Shown: piece after piece, positions 5,199 to 53,679 of the stretch
Layout of the letters: each line of letters starts with the position of its first letter
Position numbering within the stretch: the first letter of the stretch is position 1
DNA from: Vulcanimicrobiota bacterium
Lineage (GTDB): Bacteria; Vulcanimicrobiota; Vulcanimicrobiia; Eremiobacterales; Eremiobacteraceae
NCBI GenBank assembly: GCA_963805945.1
Contig: CAWDVP010000008.1
Location: forward strand, 7,319 to 71,318
Length of the DNA: 64,000 nt
Direction: 5' to 3'
The notes under the pieces: model-generated
The model's input: the letters and a program-made list of their open reading frames with translations, nothing else
Told to the model about the DNA's origin: nothing
The model's database searches: none
Translations under genes and position numbers: made by a program

Positions 5199-5858
5199 AT
5201 GATGACGAACGATACCGACGGACTTACCTCTTTGACCGACCGCGTCAACGCCTTGGAGCGGGAGAACCGGCGCCTCAAGGGCGGCGGCGCGATGTTGCTC
5301 GCCGTGGTCGTCGCGCTGAGCGCGATGGGCGCAGGTGCTGTGGAGTCGTTGAACGCGCAGAAGTTGACCGTCACGGACACGACCGGCTCGGTCACCATCT
5401 CGGGCTCGGATATCATCATGAAGAACCCGAACGGCACCGAGCGGCTCTTCCTCGGCCTCAGCGAGAAGGACCATCCGGTGCTGAACTTCTACGGGCCGGA
5501 GGGGAAGAACCGCGTCAGCCTCATCGGTTCCGATCTGCCGTTCCTGCGGTTGCTCGACGCGAAACAAGAGCGGGAATATATGGGCTTGACGACCGACAAT
5601 CATCCGGTGCTGCGCCTGTACGCTTCCGACGGCACCGAGCGCGCCTTTCTCGGCGTGAGCACGCAGAACGATCCGAATCTTCTTATGTATGGCTCGAACG
5701 GGAAGCTGCGCGCCGCGCTCACCGCGACCGATCTGCCGTACTTCACCATGTATGACGCCGCCAACACGCCGCGCATCAACATCCAAGTGAGCGACAGCAA
5801 TATCGCCAAGATGTGGCTCGAGGATACCAGCGGAAGTTCGACCTGGCGCGCTCCGTAG
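5199..5858 (+). CDS. membrane-anchored hypothetical protein with ~22-aa beta-strand repeats
   Basis: GGAGGG lies 5 nt upstream of ATG 5199 (ORF opens at 5172). Coiled-coil-like N-terminus, one TM helix (GGGAMLLAVVVALSAMGAGAV), then 6-7 degenerate repeats (HPVLNFYGPEGKNRVSL, HPVLRLYASDGTERAFL, PNLLMYGSNGKLRAAL, PYFTMYDAANTPRINI). Confidence 0.65.
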   Translation: MMTNDTDGLTSLTDRVNALERENRRLKGGGAMLLAVVVALSAMGAGAVESLNAQKLTVTDTTGSVTISGSDIIMKNPNGTERLFLGLSEKDHPVLNFYGPEGKNRVSLIGSDLPFLRLLDAKQEREYMGLTTDNHPVLRLYASDGTERAFLGVSTQNDPNLLMYGSNGKLRAALTATDLPYFTMYDAANTPRINIQVSDSNIAKMWLEDTSGSSTWRAP

Positions 5859-7031: not shown

Positions 7032-7099
7032 TGTAGGGGTCGACCTTTTGGTCGACCCGGTCACTGCGAAGCGGACCGACCTAAAGGTCGGTCCCTACA
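7032..7099. repeat. REPIN-like inverted doublet of two 27-nt hairpins
   Basis: TGTAGGGGTCGACC-TTTT-GGTCGACCC (7032-7058), 14-nt spacer, GGACCGACC-TAAA-GGTCGGTCCCTACA (7073-7099). TGTAG/CTACA ends face outward. Confidence 0.85.
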
Positions 7100-8677
7100 T
7101 GGATGCCAAATATCGCGGGATGATTTCCCGCGCCGCCCTGTTCGCCGCCATCTTCTTGTCATGCGTGCTCTTGGCCGCGACCGCGCGCGCCGACACGCCC
7201 TCGCCGGCTCCGGGCGCGTCTACGAACCCGTCCGCAAGCCCGACCGCGACGCCGGTCGAGCCGACGCCGCCGGCGGACGTCTCGACGCATCACACCACCC
7301 AGCTCGACGGGCGCAGCATCCCCTATACCGCAACCGCCGGCACGATCACGCTGCGCGACGACGAGAACGAGCCGACCGCCTCCATGTTCTATGTCGCCTA
7401 CACCCAAGACGGCGTCGGCAGATCTGAGCCACCGGCCGGTGACCTTCTTCTATAACGGCGGGCCAGGCGCGGGCACGATCTGGCTGCATATGGGCTCGTT
7501 CGCACCGAGGCGCGTCGTCGTGCCCAACGCCGGCGCCACGCGCGGACCGCCGTATCAGCTGGTCGACAACGAATACGGCTTGCTCGACAAGTCCGATCTC
7601 GTCTTCATCGACGCGCCGGGGACGGGCTTTTCGCGGCTCACCGGCAAGTCAAAGCCCAAGGACTTCTTCGGCATCGACAAGGACGCCGCCGCGTTCGGAC
7701 AGTTCATCCAGCGCTACCTCACCGCGAACAAGCGCTGGAACTCGCCGAAGTTCCTCTTCGGCGAGAGCTACGGCACGACGCGGTCGTGCGCGCTGGCCCG
7801 CTATCTGCAGCGGCATGAGATCAATGTCAACGGCGTCGTGCTGCTCTCGGCCGCGCTCAACTTCTTGCAGTTCCAAGGCGGCGATGGCAACGACATGCCG
7901 TACGTCACCTACGTGCCGACAGAGGCGGCGGTCGCGTGGTACCATCACAAAGTGCCGGACCCGCCCGCTGATTTCCAAGCGTTCCTCCGATCCGCGCAGG
8001 CCTTTGCGGTCGGAGAGTACGCCACCGCGCTCGCGCAAGGGTCGACGCTCAGCCCCGCCGCGCGCGAAGACGTCATCCATAAGCTGCACGGCTTCATCGG
8101 CATCAGCGAGGCCTATCTGCGCCGCGCCGATCTGCGCATCGAGCCCGACGAGTTCGAGAAGCAGCTGCTCGGCGGCTCGTATCTCATCCTGGGCCGCTAT
8201 GACGCGCGCTACGTCGGCGTCGACGTCTCGCCGAACGCCCAGGTTCCCGACTGGGATCCGTCCTACGATTACATCGCACCGCCATACGTCGCGACCTTGA
8301 ACGACTACGTGCGCGGCGAACTCGGCTATCACACGACCGCGTTCTACAAGCCGCTCACGTTCTTAGGGGAGTGGGACTTCCATCGCGCGGGTCAGCAGGC
8401 GGAGATCGACACCGGCGACGTCTTGCCCGATCTCATGCTCGCCATGACCACAAACCCGCGCCTGCGCGTGTTCTCGGCGAACGGCTATTACGACATGGCG
8501 ACGCCGTTCTTCGCGACCGAGTTCCTCATCGATCACATGGGGCTCAATCCGGCGCTCGCGGGGCACATCCAGTACAATTTCTATCAGTCGGGGCACATGG
8601 TCTATCTGAACACGACGGCGCTGGCGGCCTTCAAGAAGGATCTCGCGCGCTGGTACGACATGGTCTTGTCGATGTAG
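7099..8677 (+). CDS. secreted serine carboxypeptidase, peptidase family S10 (one frame break ~7418)
   Basis: Signal peptide MDAKYRGMISRAALFAAIFLSCVLLAATARA (alternative ATG 7120) and a Pro/Thr-rich linker, then VTFFYNGGPGAGT, FIDAPGTGFS and GESYGTTR. The N-terminal part is in the frame of ORF 6928-7455 and the rest is ORF 7391-8677. Stop TAG 8675-8677 lies inside the next repeat. Confidence 0.85.
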
Positions 8678-8740
8678 GGGCCGACCTTTAGGTCGGCCCA
8701 AGCGCACGATCCAGGGTCGATCTAAAGATCGACCCCTACA
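8673..8740. repeat. REPIN-like inverted doublet (archetype of the family)
   Basis: TGTAGGGGCCGACC-TTTA-GGTCGGCCC (8673-8699), 14-nt spacer, GGGTCGATC-TAAA-GATCGACCCCTACA (8714-8740), between the convergent peptidase and pyk genes. Confidence 0.9.
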
Positions 8741-13566: not shown

Positions 13567-13593
13567 GGAGCGGTCGAATTTATTCGACCGCTC
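13567..13593. repeat. single REP-like hairpin, subfamily B
   Basis: GGAGCGGTCGAA-TTTA-TTCGACCGCTC with an 11-bp perfect stem, 15 nt after the pepA stop. Could also act as its terminator. Confidence 0.85.
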
Positions 13594-17038: not shown

Positions 17039-18043
17039 CTACCACACGCGCCGACGGAGCGGCCCGGCGGACGCCTCAACGGGCTCGTCGAGCTGCGCGG
17101 TGATCAGATAGCTGCCTGGCCCCTGCCCGCGCACGGTGCGCCGCACGTGCGCCGTGCCGTCGGGCTGCACGTCGGCGGGCATGATCGTGACCGTCTGCGG
17201 TGATCCCCCTGAAAGCGTCACGACCTCGGGCGTCTGATCGGTCAGCGTGAGGCTGATGGGCGCGGTGAGTTTGGCAAGTCCGCCGACGGTGAGCGTCACG
17301 GTGGCTTCTTCAGCGCCATGGAGCGCGAGATTCGTCGTCGTGAGCTTCACCGTCACGCAGCGCATCCGCCTGCTGGCAGTCACGCCGCGATCGACGATCG
17401 TGAGTTGCGCCACGCCGCTCACATTGCTGGGCAGGGCGCCGACGAACTGGCGCGGACTTTCGGCGAGCACCTCCACCGGCTGACCGCCGAGCGTCGCCGA
17501 CGTGCTGCCGGCATCGCCGCCGAACGGCCCGAAGATCTGGATCGGCCGCCCTGCTTGCGCGATGTGCGGGAGCAGGTAGTCGGCTGCGCGCGCTGCGCCG
17601 CTGAACGGCGCGCCGGCCCGCGGGGATATCGGCACTGATGTCTGGCCTACGCTTTGACCTGCGGCGGAGCGGAGCACCAGATTCGCCGCCGTCACGCCCG
17701 CGGGCACGATCCACCTGAAACTGCGATCGCTCGCCTTCACTTGCTGACCGCCGACCTCGACGACCGTGCCATGCAGCTCATCCGCGTTGCGCCGTTGCTC
17801 GTCGCTCGTCGCGCCGGCAGGGACGACGACCACCGTGCCGGTGATCGTGTCGCCGGCAGCCATATCATCTGGCAGGGTGACGGTGACCGTGCCTTGGGTC
17901 GTGCTGAAGACCGCGGCTGCAAGACCGTGGCCGGTATCCAGCGCGGGTGGAGGCGGCGTTCCAGTGACCGCGGCCGACGTCGCGCCTGCGATACCCACCA
18001 GGAGAACGCACAAAAGGGAAGCGCTGATGAATATGCGTTTCAC
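17039..18043 (-). CDS. secreted hypothetical protein (IPT/TIG-like segment)
   Basis: GTG 18043 is preceded by AAGGGGG at 6 nt. Signal peptide VKRIFISASLLCVLLVGIAGATSA. Contains GRPIQIFGPFGG..LGGQPVEVL..LTIVDRG. ORF 17039-18175. Confidence 0.65.
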   Translation of the reverse strand: MKRIFISASLLCVLLVGIAGATSAAVTGTPPPPALDTGHGLAAAVFSTTQGTVTVTLPDDMAAGDTITGTVVVVPAGATSDEQRRNADELHGTVVEVGGQQVKASDRSFRWIVPAGVTAANLVLRSAAGQSVGQTSVPISPRAGAPFSGAARAADYLLPHIAQAGRPIQIFGPFGGDAGSTSATLGGQPVEVLAESPRQFVGALPSNVSGVAQLTIVDRGVTASRRMRCVTVKLTTTNLALHGAEEATVTLTVGGLAKLTAPISLTLTDQTPEVVTLSGGSPQTVTIMPADVQPDGTAHVRRTVRGQGPGSYLITAQLDEPVEASAGPLRRRVW

Positions 18044-18057
18044 GGTAGCCCCCTTGA

Positions 18058-18082
18058 CGGTCGAACGAATTCGACCGCTACA
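18058..18082. repeat. single REP-like hairpin, subfamily B, spanning the whole 34-nt intergenic gap
   Basis: Minus-strand reading is TGTAGCGGTCGAA-TTCG-TTCGACCG. Its TAG is the stop codon of the TPR gene (18078-18080). Confidence 0.8.
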
Positions 18083-25801: not shown

Positions 25802-26305
25802 TCACGCCTCCACTGCGACGCGCGCCGGCATCTCCCGGACCGCGAACGTCTGCGAGTGCGGGTTGGCGAGCAGTTCACGACACGCCCATTCGAGGCGCTC
25901 GCGCGGCGCCGGTCCGCCGCTCTCGTACAGCCGCCACGCGACGGCGCGCGACAGCGAGCGCAGCTGCGCCATGCCGAACGGCCCCTGCAGCAGCGAGAGC
26001 AGGCCCGTCGTGTCGTCGTCGCGATCCTCCACGACCGCTTCGAACCCGGTATCGTCATCCGATCGCCGCGCCGCTCCGGTCGTCGAGAGCGAAAGCCGGT
26101 GCTTGTTCGGGTTGAACAGCACTTCGGCGTGCGCGATGCCGCGGGCAAGCGCTTCTGGACTGTCCTCCTCGGCGTTCAAGCGCAGGATCTCCGAGCGCTC
26201 CACCCGCGCGAGCGCATCGTAGCCAAGCTGCCGCAGCGCGACGAGCACCGTGTACGCGGTGTTGTCCGGCATGCGCAGGTCGATCGCGACTTCGACGTCG
26301 CTCAT
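25802..26305 (-). CDS. purS: tandem-duplicated PurS-like protein (two PurS modules in one 167-aa chain)
   Basis: Module 1 is VEVAIDLRMPDNTAYTVLVALRQLGYDALARVERSEILRL..EVLFNPNKH. Module 2 is FEAVVEDRDDDTT..AVAWRLY..CRELLANPHSQ. ATG 26305 overlaps the upstream stop (ATGA). Confidence 0.7.
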   Translation of the reverse strand: MSDVEVAIDLRMPDNTAYTVLVALRQLGYDALARVERSEILRLNAEEDSPEALARGIAHAEVLFNPNKHRLSLSTTGAARRSDDDTGFEAVVEDRDDDTTGLLSLLQGPFGMAQLRSLSRAVAWRLYESGGPAPRERLEWACRELLANPHSQTFAVREMPARVAVEA

Positions 26306-26875
26306 GCCGGTGTCGGCCTCGGCGGCGGGCCGGCGCGGCGCACCAGGGTCACGATGAGCACCACCATGCCGGCGCCGAGGCAGGCGAACGAGACGGCGAG
26401 CCATTTCAGCAACGCGGCCGCGAGGTCCGGCGCGACCGGCGGCGCGATCGCCAGCGCGATGCGCGCTCCCTTGCCGCCGGGATAGCCGCACGTCATGACG
26501 TACGTGCCGACCTGCGGCGCGAGGAACTGCTCGATCGCCTTGCCGGACCTTCCGCCGAAATCGTATTCCGCGTCGAGCGCCGGGGGTTCGAGCGCGAGCG
26601 CGCTGCCGCTCTGCTTCGACGTCACCGCGCACTTGATGTCGGTGGTCGCCGCGGTCGCGAAGGGCTCGCCGTCGACGGTGCTCTTGCGCTCGTAGTACAC
26701 CACGTACTGCCCCGGCGTGCGGACGTGAAGATCCGATCGTGCCGGGCGCGATAAAGCGCACGAAGTCCGATTGCAAGGCCGACGCGTCGCGCAGCGCGCC
26801 GTTGACGCTCGCGACCAGACCGCCGATGATGATGAGCGCGCCGAGCGCGTACCAGAGGCCGCTCGGCTTACGCAT
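26302..26875 (-). CDS. hypothetical two-TM membrane protein embedded in the pur operon; one frame break ~26735
   Basis: MRKPSGLWYALGALIIIGGLVASV..FIAPG (frame of ORF 25802-27556) continues as DLHVRTPGQYVVYYERKS..TYVMTCGYPGG..LLKWLAVSFACLGAGMVVLIVTLV (ORF 26302-27624). ATG 26875 overlaps the purQ end by 8 nt. Confidence 0.6.
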
Positions 26876-27624
26876 GCGGGCGCTCCGCCCGCTCGCGCAA
26901 GAAACGCGCCATGCAGCTGAAGATCGCGTGCCCGGCGACCATCTGGTTCGGGTCGCCCCCGCGCAGCTCGGGCCGCCGGAACAAGACGTTGAGCGCCCAT
27001 GCGGCCCGCTCCGGATGCGGCATGAGCGCCAAGACGTTGCCCCGCTCGTTGCAGATGCCTGCGGCGCGGCGCATCGCCCCGTTGGGCGCGGCACCCGCGT
27101 AGCGAAGGACGATGCGCCCGTGCTCTTCGAGATCGTCGAAGGTCGGTCGCCTCGCCGGTGAAGCGGCCTTCGCCGTGCGCCAGCGCCATGGTCATCGCCG
27201 TGCCGGGCGCGAGACCCGCGGTGAACGCGCAACGCTCCGGCTCCCGATCGGTCACGACCTCGACGAGCTGCGCTTGGAAGTGGTGCGAGGGCAGGTTGTG
27301 CGCGATCGCCACGCGTCCGAGCATGCCGCTCTCCGCGACGATCTGCGCGCCGTTGCACAGCCCGAGCACGAGCTTGCCGCGCTCCGCTTCTTCCTTTATC
27401 ACCGCGACGATCTCGCTCTTGGCCGCGATGGCGCCGGCGCGCACGCGATCCTCGTGCGCGAACCCGCCGGCGATCACGTAGCCGTCGAAGTCGCGCAAGG
27501 CGTTTGGATTCTCCGCCCACCAGAACAGGCGCGCGTCGATGCCGGCGTCGCGGCACGCATCGACCGTCTCGGTCTCGGAGTTCGTGCCGGGGAAGACGAT
27601 GACGGCGACGCCTGGCTCAGGCAT
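26868..27624 (-). CDS. purQ: phosphoribosylformylglycinamidine synthase I (glutaminase subunit); one frame break ~27150
   Basis: VAVIVFPGTNSE, LGLCNGAQ and HGEGRF, then in a second frame NGAMRRAAGICNERGNVLALMPHPER (ORF 26868-27074). Confidence 0.9.
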
Positions 27625-30018
27625 AGAGCTTCTTCAGCGGCTCCGACCACGCGGCCCGCGCGTCGCCGAGCGGTACGTCACAGGCGCCGGCGACGGTGAT
27701 GTTCGGGCCGCCGGTCACACCGAGGCGCAGCGCTCGTGCGGGCACGGCGGCGCAGATCGCTTCGAAGGCGGCGACCTTATCGCGCGCCACTTCGACGACG
27801 AAGCCGGGCTGCTCGCCGAACAGCGCCGCCTGCAGGTCGACATCGCGCGCCCATTCGCGCGGGTCGACGAGACGCGCCCCGAGGGCGCCGTCGGCATCGC
27901 CGCCCAAACACATCTCCGCGACGCAGGCGAGCAGCCCGCCGTCCGAGATGTCGTGCGCTGCGCTGATGACGCCCTCCCGTATCCCGTTGACGACCGCGCA
28001 GAATCGAGGCGTTCGCCTCGGCGTAGTCGAGCGTCGGCAGGTCGGACGCATCGCCGGCAGCGCCGCCGGTCGCCGCTGCCAGCACCGATCCGGCGAGCTT
28101 GTCCGTGCGAGCGCCGAACAGGAAGAGCAGTCGATCCGGCGCGGTGATCTGCATGGTGGCGACGCGGGCGACGTCGTCGACGCGGCCGATGCAGGCGACG
28201 ATCGCCGAGGGTGCGATCGCGCGACCCGCCGACGACTCGTTGTACAGACTCACGTTGCCGCTCACGAACGGCAGCGGCTCGCCCGGCGCGTTGAGCTGGA
28301 GCGATGTCGCCGCTTCCGCGAGTCCCTCGATGCCGTCGACGAGTTGGCGATAGGCGATCGGATCCTCGGGATTGCCGTAGTTCAGGCAATCGGTGAGACC
28401 GATCGGCTGCGCTCCGACTGCCGCGACGTTGCGCGCGGACTCGACGACCGCGTGCGCCGCCGCGAGCTTCGCGCTGAGGGCGCCGTAGCGGGGATTGCCG
28501 TCGACCGAGAGCGCGATGCCTGCGCGCTCGCCGCGCTTGATGATGAAGACGCCGGCGTCCGCATAGCCAGACGGGATGACCGTGGCGCCGCGCACGAACA
28601 TATCGTAATGGGTGATGAGCGGCCGCCGGCTGCACACGTCCAGATGGGAGAGAACCGCCAGCAACGCTCGACTGAAGTCGACCGCTCCATTTCCACGGCG
28701 TATGGAGCGGTCGGATTTATCCGACCGGAGCTCTATCGGCGGCGCCGCTTTCCGCTCCGCCACGATCGGGCCTGCGAGCACGTCGATCGGCAGGTCGATC
28801 AACTTTTCGCCGGCGGCGCGCACGACGTAGCGTTTCGCCTCCGTCACCGTGCCGATGACCGCGGCGCGCGCGTCGGCGGCGATCTCCGGCAGCGTGAAGT
28901 GCTGGTTGTAGATCTGGAGCAGCCGTCGGCGTGAACGATGGCGGCACCGCCCACAGCATGCGCTCTTGCGTCTCCGCGCAGGCGATGACGAAGGGCGGCA
29001 GCCCGCTCGCCGCCTGCGGCACTTTGTCGATGTCGATCGCGGCCCCGAATCCGCCGGCGTTGCTCAGCTCACACGAGCTGCCCATGATGCCGCCGGCGCC
29101 GAGGTCCTTGAAACCGACCTGCAGCCCGAGCCGCTCGATCTCCGCGAACACCGCGTATGACGCGCGCATGATAACGCTCTTGAGGAACGGATCGGGGACC
29201 TGGACCGCGCTCTTGTTGGCCTGCGCTTCCGCCGCGTCGAGCACCAGCGAGGCGAACGCGGCGCCGCCGAAGCCCGATGCGTCGGTCGCCTTGCCGACGA
29301 GCACGAGATCGTATCCGGCGCCGCCGGCCGGCACGCGGCTATGAAGGATGCGGTCGGCGCGCACGATGCCGAGCGCCACCACGTTCACCAGGCAATTGTC
29401 GGTGAACGACTCGTTGAAGTAGACGTCGCCGGCGATGTTCGGCACGCCGACAGCGTTGCCGTACCCGCCGATCCCGTCCACCGCGGCCGCCGCGACGTAT
29501 GCGGCATGCGAGCCGGGCGTCGGCAGGCCGAAGCGCAGCGGATCGGCGCTCGCCACGACCTCGGCGCCCATGCACAACACATCGCGCAGGATGCCGCCGA
29601 CGCCGGTCGCCGCTCCCTCGAACGGCACGACCTGCGATGGATGGTTGTGGCTCTCGTGCGCCACGACGACGCCGTAGTCCACGCCGTCGAGGGTGGCCGC
29701 GCGCAAAATGCCGGCATCTTCGCCGACGCCGACGAGCACGTCGGCGCTGCGCACCGGCAGCGCTTTGAGCAACGGCCGCGAGCTCTTATACGAGCAATGC
29801 TCGCTCCACTGGATCGCGAACGCGTGGGCTTCGGCGCGCGTCGGATCGCGTCCGATGCGCGCTGCGATGGAGCGCAGTTCTTCCGCCGAAAGCGCGAGCG
29901 CCTCGCGGCGTGCGAGGCGCTTGAGGTCCTCGTCCGAGGCGCCGGTGATCGAAAGCGGCTCCGCCGACAAGGAGACTGATGGAGCGGTCGATGCCGTTCG
30001 ACCGTCCTTTTCTCTCAC
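27617..30018 (-). CDS. purL: phosphoribosylformylglycinamidine synthase II; two frame breaks (~28928, ~28000) and two in-frame palindromic-repeat insertions
   Basis: WSEHCSYKSS, HESHNHPS and GGYGNAVGVP (ORF 28717-30018). LLQIYNQHF..ITHYD..SGNVSLYNE (ORF 27777-28847). AAHDISDGGL..tail (ORF 27617-28051). GTG 30018 overlaps the upstream stop (GTGA). An alternative TTG start lies near 29966. Confidence 0.9.
28666..28727. repeat. pair of inverted REP-like hairpins (subfamily B) inside the purL coding sequence
   Basis: GCTCGAC-TGAA-GTCGACCGCTCCA (28666-28689), 13-nt spacer, TGGAGCGGTCGGA-TTTA-TCCGACCG (28703-28727). Translated in frame as ELRSDKSDRSIRRGNGAVDFS. Confidence 0.75.
29980..30007. repeat. 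single REP-like hairpin (subfamily B) at the 5' end of purL
   Basis: TGGAGCGGTCGA-TGCCG-TTCGACCGTCC. If GTG 30018 is the start it encodes DGRTASTAPS. Otherwise it lies in the short gap upstream of TTG ~29966. Confidence 0.75.
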
Positions 30019-31286
30019 GCGCCGGTCTTACCGTTGGGCGGCGCGTTGAGCCGTGCGTCCGATGCGATGACGTTGTTGCGGCTGCGATACTGCGAGACGA
30101 GCACCCTGCCGTAGAGCACGGTGTCGTCGACCGCGAGGATCTTCGCCGCCGCGAGCGCCGCGTTCTCGGGCTCGAGCACGACCGTGCTCGCCACGCCCGA
30201 GGGCAGGTGCAGGCTCGAAAGCACTTCCATGCCGCCCCAATTCGAGCCGATGACCGGACACGCGATGACCGGGTTGGCGGTCGCCGCGTCCACGAACGCG
30301 GAGAGCGCATTGCTCCGCCCGGCGATGGTGATATAGACGACGCGACCCAACGTGCTGTCGGTCTGCTGGATGCGTGTCAGCGCGAACACCGGCGTCTTGT
30401 GCGCCGAGGCGACATGCTTGGTGTTGGGCACGCCGAGCGCGGAGAGCGCCTTGGCGATGCGCTCCGCGTGCGCCGCGTCCGACGCCGAGCCCATCATGAT
30501 CGACACGAAACCACCGCTGCTCTTCTGGAAACGCGCGACCCGCTCGGCGACCTCTTCGTACTTGTCTTTGACGTCGCTCAGATCGCTGTCTTTGGGCGCG
30601 CTCATGTTGCGGTAGACCTGCTTGTCGAGCATGCGCGTCTGGTCGCCCGCCGGCCAGATCCGCCACGAGTCGTTGTCGATGACGTCGGCGAGCAGGATCT
30701 CGCTGCCGCCGCCGGCGCTCGGGATGCGGCCGAACTCCACCTTGAGGTCGACGAGCTGGACGTCTTGCTGCTTCCACGCATGGGCGAGGATCTCGAACAC
30801 GAGCCGGGCTTGGTCGCTCATCTCGACGATTTCCGCCGGCGTGGCGATCTTCTCGGCGACGATCTGCTCGGCGGTGTACTGCGGGTCGTGGCGCGCGTCG
30901 TCTTTGAAGAAATACTCGACGAGGCGCGGCGCGAAGATCGTGCCTTGCGCCACGCCCGGGTTGCGCTTGAGGTAGGAGCCGGCCGCGACGCCGCGCACCA
31001 CCACCTCGATCGGGATCATCTCGCATCGGCGTACGACCATCTCGTTGTCGTCGGCGTCTTCGCCGCCGCTCAAGTAGTGGGTCGGCAAGCCGCATGCGTT
31101 GAGCAGGCGGAAGATCCGCGCCGTGGTGAGCGCCGCGAGGCGGCCCTTGCCGGTGATGGTATTGCGTTTGGCGCCGTCGCCGGCGGTGATGCTGTCCTGC
31201 GACGACACGATCACCGCGTCGGGCTGATCCGGGTGCTGGTAGAGGACCTTCGTCTTGCCCCGGGCGACTTCGACTCCCTTATGCAT
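30015..31286 (-). CDS. purCE: bifunctional SAICAR synthetase / class II AIR carboxylase (PAICS-like PurC-PurE fusion)
   Basis: Collinear with animal PAICS as I recall it: GKTKVLY..SQDSITAGDGAKRN, CEMIPIEVVVRGVAAGSYLKRNPGV, FFKDDARHDPQ, LADVIDNDSWRIWPAGD, then SAHKTP, IAGRSNAL, PVIACP and SSLHLPSG (class II PurE signatures). Intact 423 aa. Confidence 0.9.
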   Translation of the reverse strand: MHKGVEVARGKTKVLYQHPDQPDAVIVSSQDSITAGDGAKRNTITGKGRLAALTTARIFRLLNACGLPTHYLSGGEDADDNEMVVRRCEMIPIEVVVRGVAAGSYLKRNPGVAQGTIFAPRLVEYFFKDDARHDPQYTAEQIVAEKIATPAEIVEMSDQARLVFEILAHAWKQQDVQLVDLKVEFGRIPSAGGGSEILLADVIDNDSWRIWPAGDQTRMLDKQVYRNMSAPKDSDLSDVKDKYEEVAERVARFQKSSGGFVSIMMGSASDAAHAERIAKALSALGVPNTKHVASAHKTPVFALTRIQQTDSTLGRVVYITIAGRSNALSAFVDAATANPVIACPVIGSNWGGMEVLSSLHLPSGVASTVVLEPENAALAAAKILAVDDTVLYGRVLVSQYRSRNNVIASDARLNAPPNGKTGA

Positions 31287-32680
31287 GCGTTGCTTTCTCC
31301 ATCGCGCGGACTTTCGCCGCGAAGAGGTGTGCGCGCTCGGCGGCGAGGCCGACGTGCGCCGCGGGTTCTAGGAGTGCTTTCATCTCCGCCGGTTTGAGGT
31401 GGACGGTGAACGCCTCATCCTTTGACAGCATCTCCGGCAGCGGGTTTTTCTCGTCCTTCTCTATCGCTTCCCAGGCCTTCATCGAGGCTTCCCGCAGCTT
31501 CTCGTGCAGCGCCTGCCGGTCGGCGCCGCGCCGCGCCGCCGCCATGAGCACCGCCTCGGTCGCGGCGAACGGGCCGAAGGTGGCGAGGTTCGCGGCGATC
31601 CGATTCTTGTCGACCCGTAGGCCGCTCATCACCTTGCTCGCCAGCGAGACGATCTCGTCGGCGGCCAAAAAGCTCTCCGCCAGCACGAAGCGGCGGTTCG
31701 CGGAATCGTCGAGCGTGCGTTCGAGCAGGTTGTCCGCGGCGTTCTGCCACGTCACCATCGCGTTGGCGGCGATCGGGCCGCGCGAGCGAGCAGATGCGCT
31801 CGCACATGATGGGATTGCGCTTGAACGGCATCGCCGACGAGCCGACCTGTTTGGCCTCGAAGGGCTCGCCTACTTCGCCGAACGGGCTGCTCGCCAGCAC
31901 GCGCACGTCGAAGGCGAATTTGCTCGCGGTCGCGGCGAGCGCGGCGACGTTGGCCACGACGATATAATCGAGGCGCCGCGAGTACGTCTGCCCTGTGATG
32001 AGCGACGCGGTCAGCCCGAACGCCGACATGACGTCGCGTTCGACCTGGTCGGGCGTGACGTCCGAGCCCTTGAGCAGCGCCGCGTACGACGCAGAAGTGC
32101 CCACCGCGCCGCGCAGCCCTTTGCTCGGCAGCCACGCGGCGAGGCATTTCAGATTCTCGTAGTCGAGATAGAGATCGTGCGCCCACAGGCTCATGCGATA
32201 GCCGAGCGTCGTGGGCTCGGCCGCCTGCAGATGCGTGTACGCCATGCACGGCAGGTCGGCGTATTTCTCGATCTGCCCGGCGAAGACATCGAGCAGCGAG
32301 CGCAGCCCGTCGCTGAGCATCGAAAGCGCCTGCTTCAGGCGCGCGGTCTCGACGTTGTCCTCGACGTCCATGGAGGTCGCGCCGAGGTGCAGCTTGCCGC
32401 CGCCGAGCTTGGCCTGCCTCGCGTAGACGCGCAGTTCGGCCATGAGGTCGTGATGGATCTCTTTTTCGATCTCGTGGGCTGCCGCCAGATCCACCGCGTC
32501 CACGTGGCGGCGCAGGTCCGCCAGCTCTTCCTCGGTGACCAGGCCCGCCTTGGCCTGCGCGGTCGCCAGCTCGAGCCAGAGCCGGCGCCACATGCGGCGT
32601 TTGGTCTCCTCGGAGAACAGTTCGCGCATAGCGGGACGGCCGTATCGCCAGGAAAACGGTGAGGAATACGCTGTTGTCAC
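31279..32680 (-). CDS. purB: adenylosuccinate lyase; one frame break ~31778
   Basis: HLGATSMDVEDN and GSSAMPFKRNPIMCERI (ORF 31415-32680) continue as MVTWQNAADNLLERTLDDS.. (ORF 31279-31758). The 3' end overlaps the purCE start by 8 nt. Confidence 0.92.
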
Positions 32681-37163: not shown

Positions 37164-40100
37164 CTAGATCTTGTGGAAGCCCAGCAGGCGGCGCAGCACG
37201 CCCGTGAAGGTGAGCAGGGCGAAGGGTATGAGCAGCCATCCGGCCGCACGCAGCAGGCCGGCGGACGAGGCGGCGGTGACGGGCGAACCCGGGATGCCGC
37301 ACCCGGAGACGCGCCACGACGTGAGCAGCGCAGGATCGAGCGACGCGTAGGTCGCGATGCCGAGCGCCGCGGCGTCGTCGAGCGGCGCGCGCTCGTCGCA
37401 CGCAGCCGTTGTAGCGGTCGAATTTATTCGACCGTCCGCCGGCACCGCTGAGCCCGGCACGAATGCGAAGATGAGGAACGCGATAAGCACCGGCGCGAGC
37501 AGCCACGCGAGCATGCGCCACGGCCGCACGCCGTAGCCCGGGATCGCGCGCAGCACGCGGTCGCCCAGCAAGCGCAACAGATCCGCCCAGCAGGCCGCGG
37601 TCCACGGCGGATTGCGGAACGGCCGGATCGCGTCTCCCTCGAGTTCGCGTCGCATGTAGAACGCGTCGGCCGCCATGCGGGCCTGCGCGCGCGGCGAGTG
37701 CGCGGGACCGCGCTGTCCTTTGTCGACGGCGCGCGCCGGGAACACCGCATCGTCGCTCGGCGCTTGCGACGCGGACTGCAGCACGACGAAATGACCGCCG
37801 CGCAGGTCGAGGGTGAGGCCATGGTCGCTCGAACGCGCCGGCGCCGGCGCGGGCGTGAGTTCGCCGTTGCCGCGCGCAGGCCGCCCCGAGACTGCTTGCG
37901 CGCGCACGCTCTTCGCCGCGGCGCGCTCGCCGATGCGCAGGCCGCGGAAATGCATCCAGCGCAGATCGAGCGGCGCCTCGAACGTCGCATCGGAGAACAC
38001 CGCGTCGCGGCCGACGCGGCTGCCGACAAAACGGGTCTCGGCGGCGAAACTCGCGCGCTCGCACAGCAGGTCTGAGGTCACGTCCGCACCATCGAAGATC
38101 GCTCGGCGGGCGAACGCTGCGCCGCTGCAATCGAGCTGTCCGCCGATGTGTGCGGCGTCGAAGCGCGCGTCGCCGCCGAAGCGAGCACCCGAGCACAGCA
38201 TGTCCGACTGCACGCTTGCGCCTTCGAAGTCGGCCGGCCCATCGAAGCGCGTCGTGCGCAGCTGCAGCCCCTCGCCGAACGTCGCACCTGAGAATTCCGC
38301 GCGCGCGGCGAACGTGGCATCGTCGAAGCTCGAGTCTTTGCCTGCGCTGATCCTGTGGAACAGGGTGTCGCCGCCGAACGTCGCGCCACTCGCGTCGACG
38401 CCGCCGGCGATGCCGACGTCGTTGCAACGCACTTCGCCCTGCAGTCGTGCCGCCCGCATGCCGAGCGCTCCCCGCACCTCTGCGCCGTCGAACAACGCGG
38501 CGCGCGCGAAGACCGCCTTATCGAAGGACGCGCTGCCGCCGATACGAGCGCCGCGGAAATCTGCATCCGCATCAAATGCGGCAGCGCCGCATTCCAACGA
38601 GCCGCCGGTCTGCACGGCGCCGAACTGCGCCGCGCCGGTGAAATGGGATCCCGTCAGGGTGGCGCCGGCGCCGATGCGCGCCGCGCCGAAATTGGCCTCA
38701 CGGGCGAAAGTGGCGCTCGTGCCTGCGACGCCGCCACCGACGACGAGCGAGCGGAACGTCGCGGGGCCATCGAAGCGAGCGCCATCGATCTTCAGATCGC
38801 CGCCGACCTTGGCGTGCGCAAAGGTCGCGTCCTCGCAGAAATGCGCTTTGCTGGCGAGCAGCGCGCCCTTGCAGGAAAGGCTCGCGAAGCGCGCCGCGCG
38901 CGCGAGGGTCGCGCCGCTCAGGTCCACGTCGCCGCCGCTCTCGGCGGCGCTCAGATCGATCTCGCCGCGGCACTCGACGTTGGCAGCGGCGATCGCGCCG
39001 GCGCGCAGGCTCGGCATCGCGGTGGCGCCCGCGAAAACCGTCCAGGCGAAGCACGCCCGCCCGTCCACGCGGACGTTCGGCAGAGTCAGCTGCGGCGGCG
39101 AAGGTCGCGCGCGTGCAGTCGAGCGAGCCCAGGCGCGCGTTGGCAAAGGTGACAGGACCATGGAACGCCGCGTGCGTGAAGTCGGCTTCGCCGGCGACGC
39201 GCAATTCGCTCAGGTCGGCGCCGCGGTCGAACGAGGCGGACTCGCACGACAGCGCGCCGCCGACGTCGCAGCCGCGCAGATCCGCGCCTCGCCTTGAATT
39301 TCGCGTCCTCGAGGTTCAGGTCCGCGCCGACGCCCATGCCCGCGAAACTCACGTCGCGCTCGAACACCGATTGCAGGCACAGCACGTTGCGCGCCATCGC
39401 GCGCCTCTTTGAGCGACACGGTCGCGGCGAACACGATGTTCGACAGCGTGAGCTGCGCCAGCTGGGCGCCTTCGAACGCCACCTCGCCGCCAAAGGACGC
39501 GCCGGTGGCGATGACCGCCTCCGTGACGCGGATCGACGGGAACAGCGCGCGTCGCCGGAAGTGCGACTCCGAAAGATCGAGCTGGCCGCCGATCTGCGCG
39601 CGCTCGAGCCGCACGTCGCCGTCGAAGGCCGCGCGCTTGAGGCTCGCATGCCGCACGACCGAGAGGTCGATGAGGGCGACGTCGCCGGCGACGAGCGCGC
39701 CCTCGAGGATGAGGTCGCCGCCGATCTGCAGTTCTTGGCACTCGAACGGTCCATGGATCTTCAGCGCGTCGCCCGTGAGCGAGCCGCCGATCCTGGCGCC
39801 TTTGGCGCGCAGCGCGTCCGTCGACGTCGGCGTCATGCAGGCTCAGTGCGCCGCCGATCGCGACACCCGCGAGATCGAGTTCGCCGCTGAACTTCACGCC
39901 CGCGAAACTGACGTCGCCTTCGCCGCGCATGCCGGCGAGGATCACGCGGCCGCCGAACGCCGTGCCGTCGAAGCGGACCGCCTGCAAGAAGCGCGCATCG
40001 CCGAGTGAGATGCCCGCGGCGCGCGAATTGGTGATTGCGAACGAAGCCGGCACGTAGCGTCCGCTCAAGTCGAGGTCGCCCGCGATCACCGCGTTGTCGA

Positions 40101-40242: not shown

Positions 40243-40745
40243 CAATCGAACTTCCTACGCAGTTGTGCCATCGCGACGGCGCTGCACGCCGCATCGTAGC
40301 CCTTATTGGATGTAGCGGTCGAATTTATTCGACCGGGCGGACGGTCGACTGAAGTCGACCGCTCCATATGCTCCGCGGCATTTCCGCCGTCTGCGGCCGA
40401 GCGCTCGCGCGCCTGCTGCTCGTTCTCGGTGGTGAGCACGCCGAAGATGACCGGGATGCCGGTTTTCAGCGCGACGTCCGCGATGCCCCGCGCCGCTTCG
40501 CCCGCGACGTATTCGAAGTGAGGCGTGTCACCGCGGATGACGCAGCCCAGGCACACCACGGCGTTGTACGTCTTGGTCTGCGCCGCCCACAGCGCGGCGA
40601 CCGGCAGCTCGAACGCGCCGGGCACCTCGAAGACGTCGACGAGGTCCGCCTCGATCTTCGCCTCGGCGAAGCCGCGGCGCGCGCCGTCGAGCAGCGCCTG
40701 CGTGATCGGCCCGTTGAAACGGCTGCGGATGACTGCGAAACGCAC
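40242..40745 (-). CDS. ribH: 6,7-dimethyl-8-ribityllumazine synthase carrying a ~24-aa in-frame repeat-derived insertion
   Basis: RFNGPIT, VPGAFELP, LGCVIRGDTPHFEYV and GVLTTENEQQARERS..GGN-[AAEHMERSTSVDRPPGRINSTATSN]-KGYDAACSAVAM. One continuous ORF. Confidence 0.9.
   Translation of the reverse strand: MRFAVIRSRFNGPITQALLDGARRGFAEAKIEADLVDVFEVPGAFELPVAALWAAQTKTYNAVVCLGCVIRGDTPHFEYVAGEAARGIADVALKTGIPVIFGVLTTENEQQARERSAADGGNAAEHMERSTSVDRPPGRINSTATSNKGYDAACSAVAMAQLRRKFD
40311..40366. repeat. REPIN-like doublet (subfamily B) inside ribH
   Basis: TGTAGCGGTCGAA-TTTA-TTCGACCG, then GGC, then GGACGGTCGAC-TGAA-GTCGACCGCTCCA. Terminal inverted repeats are TG(T/G)AGCGGTCGA. Confidence 0.85.
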
Positions 40746-40754
40746 CGAGGCGCT

Positions 40755-43658: not shown

Positions 43659-43744
43659 TGTAGGTGCCGACCTTTGGTGTAGGGGCCGACCTTTAGGTCG
43701 GCCCAGAAAAAATCGAAGGGTCGATCTGAAGATCGACCCCTACA
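43659..43744. repeat. truncated half-REP plus complete REPIN-like doublet in the ribD leader
   Basis: TGTAGGTGCCGACCTTTGG (43659-43677), TGTAGGGGCCGACC-TTTA-GGTCGGCCC (43678-43704), 13-nt spacer, GGGTCGATC-TGAA-GATCGACCCCTACA (43718-43744). Confidence 0.9.
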
Positions 43745-43750
43745 GACGCG

Positions 43751-44383
43751 CTACAAACGCGCGGCGAGGCATGCTGCAGCGACCGATACCACACCGAGGC
43801 GCCGTAGGACGAGCGCGCACGCCCGTAGCGTCGCGCCGGTTGTCACGACATCGTCGACCAGGATGACGTCACGGCCTGCCAAGTGCAGCGCATCAACACC
43901 AGGCGCGAATGCGCCGGCGACATTCGCGTCGCGCGCGCCGAGGTCAAGTGAACTCTGCCGCTCGGTTGCGCGCGCGCGGCGCAGCGCGTCGCCAAGGGCG
44001 GGCGGCGAACCGAGCGCAGCCGCCAGCGCGCGCGCGATCACCTCGGCTTGATTGTAGCCACGAGAGCGCAAGCGCGCTGCGTGGAGCGGCACCGGCACGA
44101 GGATGCCTTCGACAGGCATCATGCGTCTGGCAAGAGCCTCGGCAAGCCGCGCGCCGACGGCACGCCTGCCCGCGTACTTGAAGGCGAGAATAGCGCTGCG
44201 CAGCATCCCTTCGTATGCGCCAAGCGCGGTGACCCGCTCGAGCCCGTCGATATCGCGCCGCACGATGGGCGTGCGCACGCCGATGGCGCAAACGCATGCG
44301 TCGCACACGTCCGCTCCGAACTCCGCGCATCCGGCGCAACGTCGCGGCGCGAGCACGTCGGCAAGACCTGTAGCATCTGCCAT
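43751..44383 (-). CDS. comFC: ComF-family phosphoribosyltransferase-like protein
   Basis: N-terminal Cys cluster (CAGCAEFGADVCDACV), LVPVPLHAARLRSRGYNQ and the PRTase motif VILVDDVVTTGATL. Confidence 0.8.
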   Translation of the reverse strand: MADATGLADVLAPRRCAGCAEFGADVCDACVCAIGVRTPIVRRDIDGLERVTALGAYEGMLRSAILAFKYAGRRAVGARLAEALARRMMPVEGILVPVPLHAARLRSRGYNQAEVIARALAAALGSPPALGDALRRARATERQSSLDLGARDANVAGAFAPGVDALHLAGRDVILVDDVVTTGATLRACALVLRRLGVVSVAAACLAARL

Positions 44384-44415: not shown

Positions 44416-44469
44416 GGGTCGATCTGAAGATCGACCCCTACATACGAAGCGGTCGTTAGATCGACTACA
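44416..44469. repeat. single REP-like hairpin plus degenerate copy
   Basis: GGGTCGATC-TGAA-GATCGACCCCTACA (44416-44442) followed by a weak GCGGTCG-TTAGA-TCGACTACA (44449-44469). Confidence 0.75.
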
Positions 44470-53652: not shown

Positions 53653-53679
53653 TGGAGCGGTCGACTTCAGTCGACCGTC
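53653..53679. repeat. single REP-like hairpin (subfamily B) between asd and lysC
   Basis: TGGAGCGGTCGAC-TTCA-GTCGACCGTC within the 68-nt intergenic gap. Confidence 0.85.

Follow-up and report, generated by a model that had tools for sequence, protein, structure and literature searches.

Short palindromic repeats appear to form part of the coding sequence of purL, the gene for small formylglycinamidine ribonucleotide (FGAM) synthase II, in a 64,000-nucleotide stretch of DNA from a Vulcanimicrobiota bacterium (assembly GCA_963805945.1, contig CAWDVP010000008.1; phylum Eremiobacterota below). We refer to the whole of this stretch as the window. We consider it likely that units of a repetitive extragenic palindrome (REP)-type family occupy two permissive positions of purL, where they are in frame, would be translated and are tolerated as neutral filler. 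One position follows the start codon and holds a single unit. The other lies in the linker between the two halves of the enzyme and holds an inverted doublet. Comparison of predicted proteins provides good support for in-frame translation of the linker units, while that of the N-terminal unit is probable.

Palindromic units in purL and in the window

The linker region of purL contains two units placed head-to-head. On the coding (minus) strand, positions 28665-28728 read CCGGTCGGATAAATCCGACCGCTCCAT-ACGCCGTGGAA-ATGGAGCGGTCGACTTCAGTCGAGCG. The corresponding translation, ..PPIELRSDKSDRSIRRGNGAVDFSRALL.., stands immediately ahead of the conserved block LLAVLSHLDVCSRRPLITHYD. An earlier, sequence-only reading had placed two inverted hairpins just upstream of this block and quoted their translation; the hairpins are real and the translation is correct. 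Short-read contigs from two other soil metagenomes are identical to 28641-28829, with 0 mismatches, which argues that the doublet is not an assembly artefact.

REPs consist of a 5' tag followed by a palindrome and often occur as inverted doublets termed REPINs (Nunvar et al. 2013, PMC3686654; Bertels & Rainey 2011, PMC3116915). The purL linker shows the features expected of a REPIN, namely an inverted pair with a short spacer that can fold as a single hairpin, and the same architecture is present in a related genome, L032. The RNA fold of the doublet has a predicted energy of -44.1 kcal/mol (z -2.8). In its minimum free energy structure the tag regions of the two units are paired, forming 12 bp, and one long extended hairpin is possible.

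The N-terminal region reads GGACGGTCGAACGGCATCGACCGCTCCAT (29979-30004 plus flanks). With translation starting at GTG 30018, the predicted N-terminal peptides are (M)REKDGR.. / TASTAPSVSLSAEPLSITGASDEDLK, and the unit encodes DGRTASTAPS, as the earlier reading had it. The hairpin begins 13 nt after the GTG and has a predicted energy of -29.5 kcal/mol (z -2.7).

The repeat family is dispersed. The motif GGTCGR-N4-8-YCGACC has 12 matches in the 64-kb window, against a mean of 0.47 and a maximum of 3 in 100 shuffles. A 13th family unit carries one stem mismatch, giving 13 units per 64 kb, a count for the window only. Alignment of all units yields the consensus TG[G/T]AGC-GGTCGA-loop-TCGACC-G, in which the loop is of either the ATTTAT or the CTTCAG subtype. 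The palindrome, CGGTCGA-N4-6-TCGACCG, has a 7-bp stem and is the kind of short stem-loop (20-40 bp) by which REPs are defined. The purL units have 20-26 nt in common with copies at 13567, 40356 and 53654, including the 5' tag. This tag is variable within the family. GGAG is found on all three purL units of the window and on the units at 13572, 40343 and 53659. GTAG is found on the window units 18059, 37416 and 40317, on linker unit 1 of L032 and also in a second related genome, L002, while the N-terminal unit of L032 carries GTGG.

Approximately 6 of the 13 units are intragenic (three in purL, two in ribH and one in a pentapeptide-repeat open reading frame, ORF), and the other 7 are intergenic or in a 5' untranslated region (UTR). 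In this small sample, the predominantly extragenic location typical of REPs is not seen. The consensus is open in 4-5 of the 6 reading frames, with stops only in the GTAG tag (TAG) and in the reverse-complemented loop (TAA), so the survival of an in-frame copy is not improbable. An Rfam scan of 26000-32000 at E<=1 gave no family match.

Orthologous sites in related genomes

Related loci assign the window to Eremiobacterota (Vulcanimicrobiota), and the nearest GTDB representatives have 74-80% protein identity to it. In L032, PurL is 77% identical at the amino acid level and is encoded by an uninterrupted ORF of 804 codons. Its linker contains the same head-to-head doublet at the same position, read HGRINSTATEFVDGAVEFIRP, and a further unit lies three codons past the GTG start, read VNDGRMNSTAT. 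PurL of L002 (80% identity) has three linker units in frame (..SSGRVYAAGSSEGSGRIHSTGRASSTG..) and an empty N-terminal site. Elsewhere among 78 related loci the motif is almost absent. The intact ORF of L032 and the in-frame units of L002 agree with the earlier proposal that the copies are read through within purL. L002, the nearest GTDB relative and a metagenome-assembled genome with a 2.37-Mb contig, has a purL frame break of its own at ~5202-5207, near query residue 745 and far downstream of the linker.

The spacing of the units preserves the frame. Relative to L002, the N-terminal insert amounts to +30 nt in the window and +24 nt in L032, both multiples of 3. The frame used for linker unit 1 is not the same in the window as in L032, because the spacer differs by 2 nt, and the overall frame is kept. 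In a strain of ~90% identity, represented by a contig from run X1, a G is added after 28690 and one base is missing at 28701, both within the doublet spacer. These compensating +1/-1 indels alter 3-4 codons and restore the frame. The frame-kept inserts and compensating indels indicate that the reading frame is constrained while the peptide sequence is not.

The units at the linker site also differ in kind. The loop of unit 2 is CTTCAG in the window and ATTTAT in L032, where unit 2 equals the window copy at 13567 over 26 nt. This difference in loop subtype at the same site points to turnover at an occupied site rather than simple vertical decay.

The start codon can be assigned by conservation. 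In 16 relatives the purL start always overlaps the purCE stop as GTGA or ATGA, which supports the earlier suggestion that GTG 30018 is the coupled start of the gene. An in-frame TTG is present 16 codons into the window ORF, and relatives have Y, V or R at that position.

No recognisable linker units are present in three further relatives, L001, L003 and L004, and no canonical linker unit was found in the metagenomic P0006 and P0002 contigs (L159, L160). The linker of the closest metagenomic protein, P0001, reads ..SSGRTIRT.. and may represent another unit, as seen at the protein level only. Scanning metagenome contigs with the linker fragment returned, among the matches listed, only relatives of <=52% identity, which are of no use for dating the insertion. 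A neighbour-joining tree allows the window, L032 and L002 either to form a clade that excludes L001, L003 and L004 or not to, so a single ancestral insertion and repeated insertion are both possible.

In the model we propose, a mobile palindromic family of REP type would have spread into small purL of this Eremiobacterota lineage at two permissive positions. One is the segment directly downstream of the start codon, the other the flexible linker that joins the two AIRS/AIRS_C halves. Each unit would consist of a 5' tag, GTAG or GGAG, and a hairpin with a 7-bp stem, with frequent pairing as inverted, REPIN-like doublets. Being frame-preserving and free of stops in the frame used, the units would contribute ~10 and ~20 extra or replaced residues. 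The linker site would have been occupied by REPs throughout, with turnover by re-insertion or conversion, and linker length stays roughly constant. The inserts are presumably neutral, and their mobilisation would be carried out by a transposase similar to the REP-associated tyrosine transposases (RAYTs).

Frame breaks, protein length and competing explanations

The gene is a small purL. Its stitched product contains an FGAR-AT_linker domain (PF18072) and two copies each of AIRS (PF00586) and AIRS_C (PF02769), and aligns end to end with PurL of T. thermophilus (PDB 3VIU, E 1e-124). The linker domain, the duplicated AIRS/AIRS_C arrangement and the pur operon context all correspond to small PurL. 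purCE and purB lie upstream, and purQ lies directly downstream, where the purL stop and the purQ start overlap (ATGCCTGA, ~27617-27624). Coordinates are listed in Table 1.

Table 1. Features of purL and its surroundings in the window, in window coordinates.
Feature	Position	Strand	Remarks
Small purL (FGAM synthase II)	27617..30018	-	799 aa after removing two single-base frame errors
N-terminal REP unit, ATGGAGC-GGTCGATGCCGTTCGACC-G	29979..30004	+ (antisense to purL)	Codons 5-14, DGRTASTAPS, if the start is GTG 30018
Linker REP unit 1, ATGGAGC-GGTCGGATTTATCCGACC-GG	28702..28728	+	First on the coding strand; read LRSDKSDRSI
Spacer between linker units	28691..28701		11 nt; read ..RRG..
Linker REP unit 2, ATGGAGC-GGTCGACTTCAGTCGAGC-G	28665..28690	-	CTTCAG-loop subtype, one stem mismatch; read NGAVDFSRA
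Frame error 1	28925..28926		Extra C/G in a CC run, coding ACG[G]CTG; between ..PPSFTPT and LLQIYNQ..
Frame error 2	27998..28002		Probably one extra base, coding ATTC[T]GCGCGG; between ..EANASI and AVVNGIREG..; relatives read ASIRAVV in one frame
GTGA, purL GTG overlapping the purCE stop TGA	30015..30018	-	Translational coupling
Fused purC-purE (SAICAR_synt + AIRC; Pfam)	30015..31286	-	423-aa ORF, upstream of purL

In the window as given, purL is not a single ORF. The 2402 nt from 30018 to 27617 are divided over three frames (30018-28927, 28922-27999 and 27997-27617), and the ORF starting at GTG 30018 ends at a TAA (28717) in the loop of linker unit 1. Similar breaks are present in purQ (~27145-27150) and purB (~31770-31778), making four breaks in ~6 kb together with those in purL. 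In L003, L004 and L032, by contrast, each of the genes purB, purL and purQ forms one uninterrupted ORF. Every short-read contig that covers 28925/6 has one base fewer there (two contigs from run X1 and one from run X2, the latter 151 nt long and 150/151 identical to the window), and the sole contig over the purB site has one base fewer at 31775. The frameshift at 28925 is most likely an assembly artefact, not biology. No contig from six runs spans 27970-28000, and none spans the purQ site. Given that the extra base is absent from the contigs over 28925 and 31775, the four breaks are most likely single-base insertion errors of the assembly, seen directly at these two sites and extrapolated to the other two. 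Further insertion errors are probably present elsewhere in the window.

The sequence-only reading had put purL at about 800 codons and had found the excess consistent with repeat-derived segments. It had also named an intervening frame error that leaves the linker copy untranslated, and repeat-free linkers of equal length in relatives, as findings that would speak against it. The length holds, at 799 aa once the frames are stitched, although the gene is broken over three frames, which had gone unnoticed. Upstream of the linker, at 28925, there is indeed a frame error, the break described above as most likely artefactual. The cause proposed for the length is not supported, since the repeat-free relatives already have 783-793 aa and ~800 is near the norm of the clade. 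PurL has 789 aa in L002, 799 in the window and 804 in L032. The segment from DVL(A/T) to VLxHxDV comprises 34 aa in a basal group, 39-43 aa in L001, L003 and L004, and 40 aa in the window, and is longer in L002 (45 aa) and L032 (48 aa). Linkers of equal length are therefore partly found in repeat-free relatives, and the ~20 repeat-coded residues of the linker are not a net addition. Either the repeats took the place of earlier linker residues or their gain was balanced by a loss of such residues, or the linkers of the other genomes are themselves repeats in decay. The repeats can account for a net N-terminal gain of only ~+10 aa and a net linker gain of only ~+6 aa.

Domain order and catalytic blocks are shared with PurL of T. 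thermophilus and Thermotoga maritima (1VK3/2HS0/3D54). In the T. thermophilus protein the linker between the halves is at the same place, and the aligned stretch differs by ~3 residues from that of the window. In contrast, the Eremiobacterota proteins have 783-804 aa, including a ~33-aa N-terminal extension, compared to 725 in T. thermophilus and 603 in T. maritima, and REP-derived residues would be present in the linker and N-terminus of the window protein. As judged from the alignments, most of the excess over 725-760 aa is clade-wide and chiefly due to this extension. The linker has no secondary structure and a pLDDT <50 in a weak AlphaFold2 model of a 308-aa fragment.

Several observations weigh against the reading of the units as translated insertions. 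Linkers just as long occur in the nearest relatives that are free of repeats, so the apparent insertion may be a replacement. Where the canonical tag is GT[A/G]G, the three purL units have GGAG. A crude six-frame scan of the window for the motifs HxHxV, WQxxFxDH and YxxxNP gave no RAYT candidate. Frame error 2, at ~28000, is outside the coverage of the short-read contigs, the AlphaFold2 fragment model is poor overall (mean pLDDT 55.8), and translation itself is a prediction. In addition, alternative in-frame start codons are available: the window has a TTG, and L032 has an ATG within its hairpin loop.

These last codons are central to the most serious alternative, in which purL starts at the downstream TTG and the N-terminal hairpin is a post-transcriptional element that stabilises the mRNA or tunes coupling in the purCE-purL spacer. 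A stable hairpin so close to the GTG would normally hinder initiation, and many REPs reported as intragenic at N-termini may really be extragenic (PMC3733652). The relatives argue otherwise: the NTGA start is kept in all 16, and in the repeat-free ones the conserved block follows 4 codons later. The position of the TTG is not conserved, and it is not preceded by a purine-rich Shine-Dalgarno sequence. Both carriers have inserts whose length is divisible by 3, and a 93%-identical strain is gap-free. We regard a non-coding N-terminal unit as unlikely, if still worth consideration. Selection of the purL hairpins at the nucleic-acid level is more doubtful again; they might make ribosomes pause between the halves of the enzyme, be a target of RNase or gyrase, or form a REPIN that its RAYT maintains. 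Such selection could account for units near the consensus at orthologous sites while the flanking genes are only 77-80% identical at the protein level, for the identity of L032 unit 2 to a dispersed window copy, and for the 12-bp extended hairpin of the doublet. However, the loop subtype (CTTCAG or ATTTAT), the number of units (2, or 3 in L002) and the spacer (by 2 nt) vary in a manner that looks like turnover, and L001, L003 and L004 manage without recognisable units. The hairpins match no Rfam family, and their fold z-scores are modest.

The frame breaks, together with the stop of the first ORF within a linker repeat, could indicate that purL is a decaying pseudogene in which the frameshifts are genuine and the repeats have built up in inactive, untranslated DNA. 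We find this improbable. The extra base is absent from every contig covering 28925 and 31775, the three frame pieces are 58-82% identical to orthologues and have no internal stops, and the same repeats lie within the intact ORF of L032. Four single-base breaks in ~6 kb of core purine genes, along with the break in L002 (MFD-labelled, possibly long-read), fit assembly indel error. In a genome of 67% GC, short imperfect palindromes are abundant, and a variable linker might resemble one by chance. This can be virtually dismissed given the excess of motif matches over expectation, the identity with dispersed copies over 20-26 nt including the 5' tag, and the fact that two other genomes carry this family at the corresponding sites, while it is almost absent from the rest of the 78 loci. 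Translated REP-type repeats in two permissive positions remain the explanation that we favor.

Other copies and known repeat families

A further doublet of the same family, arranged tail-to-tail, is located at 40312-40365, in frame within a ribH-like (lumazine synthase) ORF at 40245-40754 (-). It reads ..ERSAADGGN[AAEHMERSTSVDRPPGRINSTATS]NKGYDAACSAVAMAQLRRKFD. RibH of B. subtilis (1RVV) aligns on both sides of the insert. From this two-sided alignment, ~23 residues are added, and their site is precisely the G-N-K-G loop that separates the last two helices. Pentameric rather than 60-mer capsid assembly has been associated with short insertions at this point. The unit at 37411-37436, read DGRINSTAT, lies in the C-terminal region of a pentapeptide-repeat ORF (37167-39209, -; Pfam Pentapeptide_3) and could be another translated copy.

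Two units are candidate 5'-UTR elements. One, at 18056-18081, stands just ahead of the ribosome-binding site and GTG of the gene at 17042-18040. The other, at 53654-53679, is ~15 codons upstream of the start of aspartate kinase (VVVMKFGGSS). A second subfamily, TGTAGG-GGTCGATCTnnAGATCGACC-C, is present at 7038-7057, 8715-8734, 43719-43738 and 44417-44436. Its units flank a peptidase-like ORF (7124-8674, weak S10/S33 matches) and a comF-like phosphoribosyltransferase ORF (43751-44383). Neither ORF resembles a RAYT.

While REPs within genes are the exception, precedents have been published. Among intragenic GTAG-type REPs, over half the insertions consist of dimers or groups, encoding 20-30 aa (Di Nocera et al. 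2013, PMC3733652). Their neutrality when located in loops or flexible linkers has been suggested, with N-terminal cases possibly extragenic (PMC3733652). The purL repeats share with GTAG-REPs and REPINs the dispersed units of 25-26 nt, with a 5' tetranucleotide tag followed by a palindrome, and the inverted doublets able to form one larger hairpin. As in those families, some copies lie wholly within ORFs, dimers encode ~20-30 aa, and the inserts are proposed to be neutral in linkers, loops or termini. They differ in the GGAG tag of the purL units, which replaces GT[A/G]G, and in the proportion of intragenic units, about half in the window and thus far above a norm described as 'almost exclusively intergenic'. 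The host phylum, Eremiobacterota, is also different, and the crude scan of the window revealed no RAYT. We found no report of REPs in Eremiobacterota in the literature searched.

Another precedent is found in the Rickettsia palindromic elements (RPEs), selfish palindromes inserted in frame in unrelated housekeeping genes (PMC10969869, citing Ogata et al. 2000). In the summary account given there, RPEs resemble the purL repeats as in-frame palindromes in housekeeping genes whose extra peptide is compatible with fold and function. According to the same account, RPEs are longer, ~100-150 bp, while the units described here have 25 nt and the doublet 64 nt. It describes them as restricted to Rickettsia, with CGTC tags on RPE-4/6, in contrast to an Eremiobacterota host. 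It also has the RPE peptide as conserved, whereas the peptide here depends on the frame (GRxxSTA, RSDKSDR, GAVxF). The purL repeats work like RPEs without being RPEs, and fit best in the REP/REPIN family. The present case is a further member of the class of intragenic REPs.

The linker is occupied in three lineages with ~20% PurL divergence and the N-terminal site in two, with a linker of ~40-48 aa. A tentative interpretation, which we hold to be possible but unlikely, is that the two purL sites are long-lived, orthologously occupied REP 'nests'. If so, this would imply either site-specific re-targeting, in which REPs home to resident REPs within an essential gene, or selection for a hairpin within the ORF, and REP turnover would keep supplying core enzymes of Eremiobacterota with new linker sequence.

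For annotation, the single-base insertion errors of the assembly break several genes, and other apparent pseudogenes in the window should not be trusted as such. Gene callers and annotators are prone to mis-handle genes of this kind, in which REP units mark the permissive insertion sites of PurL. With our results, the range of REP/REPIN insertions that lie within genes and are translated would come to include an uncultured soil phylum and the core metabolic enzymes PurL and RibH. The comparative series of repeat-free, two-unit and three-unit orthologues bears on the buffering of linker length and on how essential genes come to retain selfish palindromes. The most interesting aspects that remain are that REPs persist and turn over at orthologous intragenic sites, together with the in-frame doublet of ribH.

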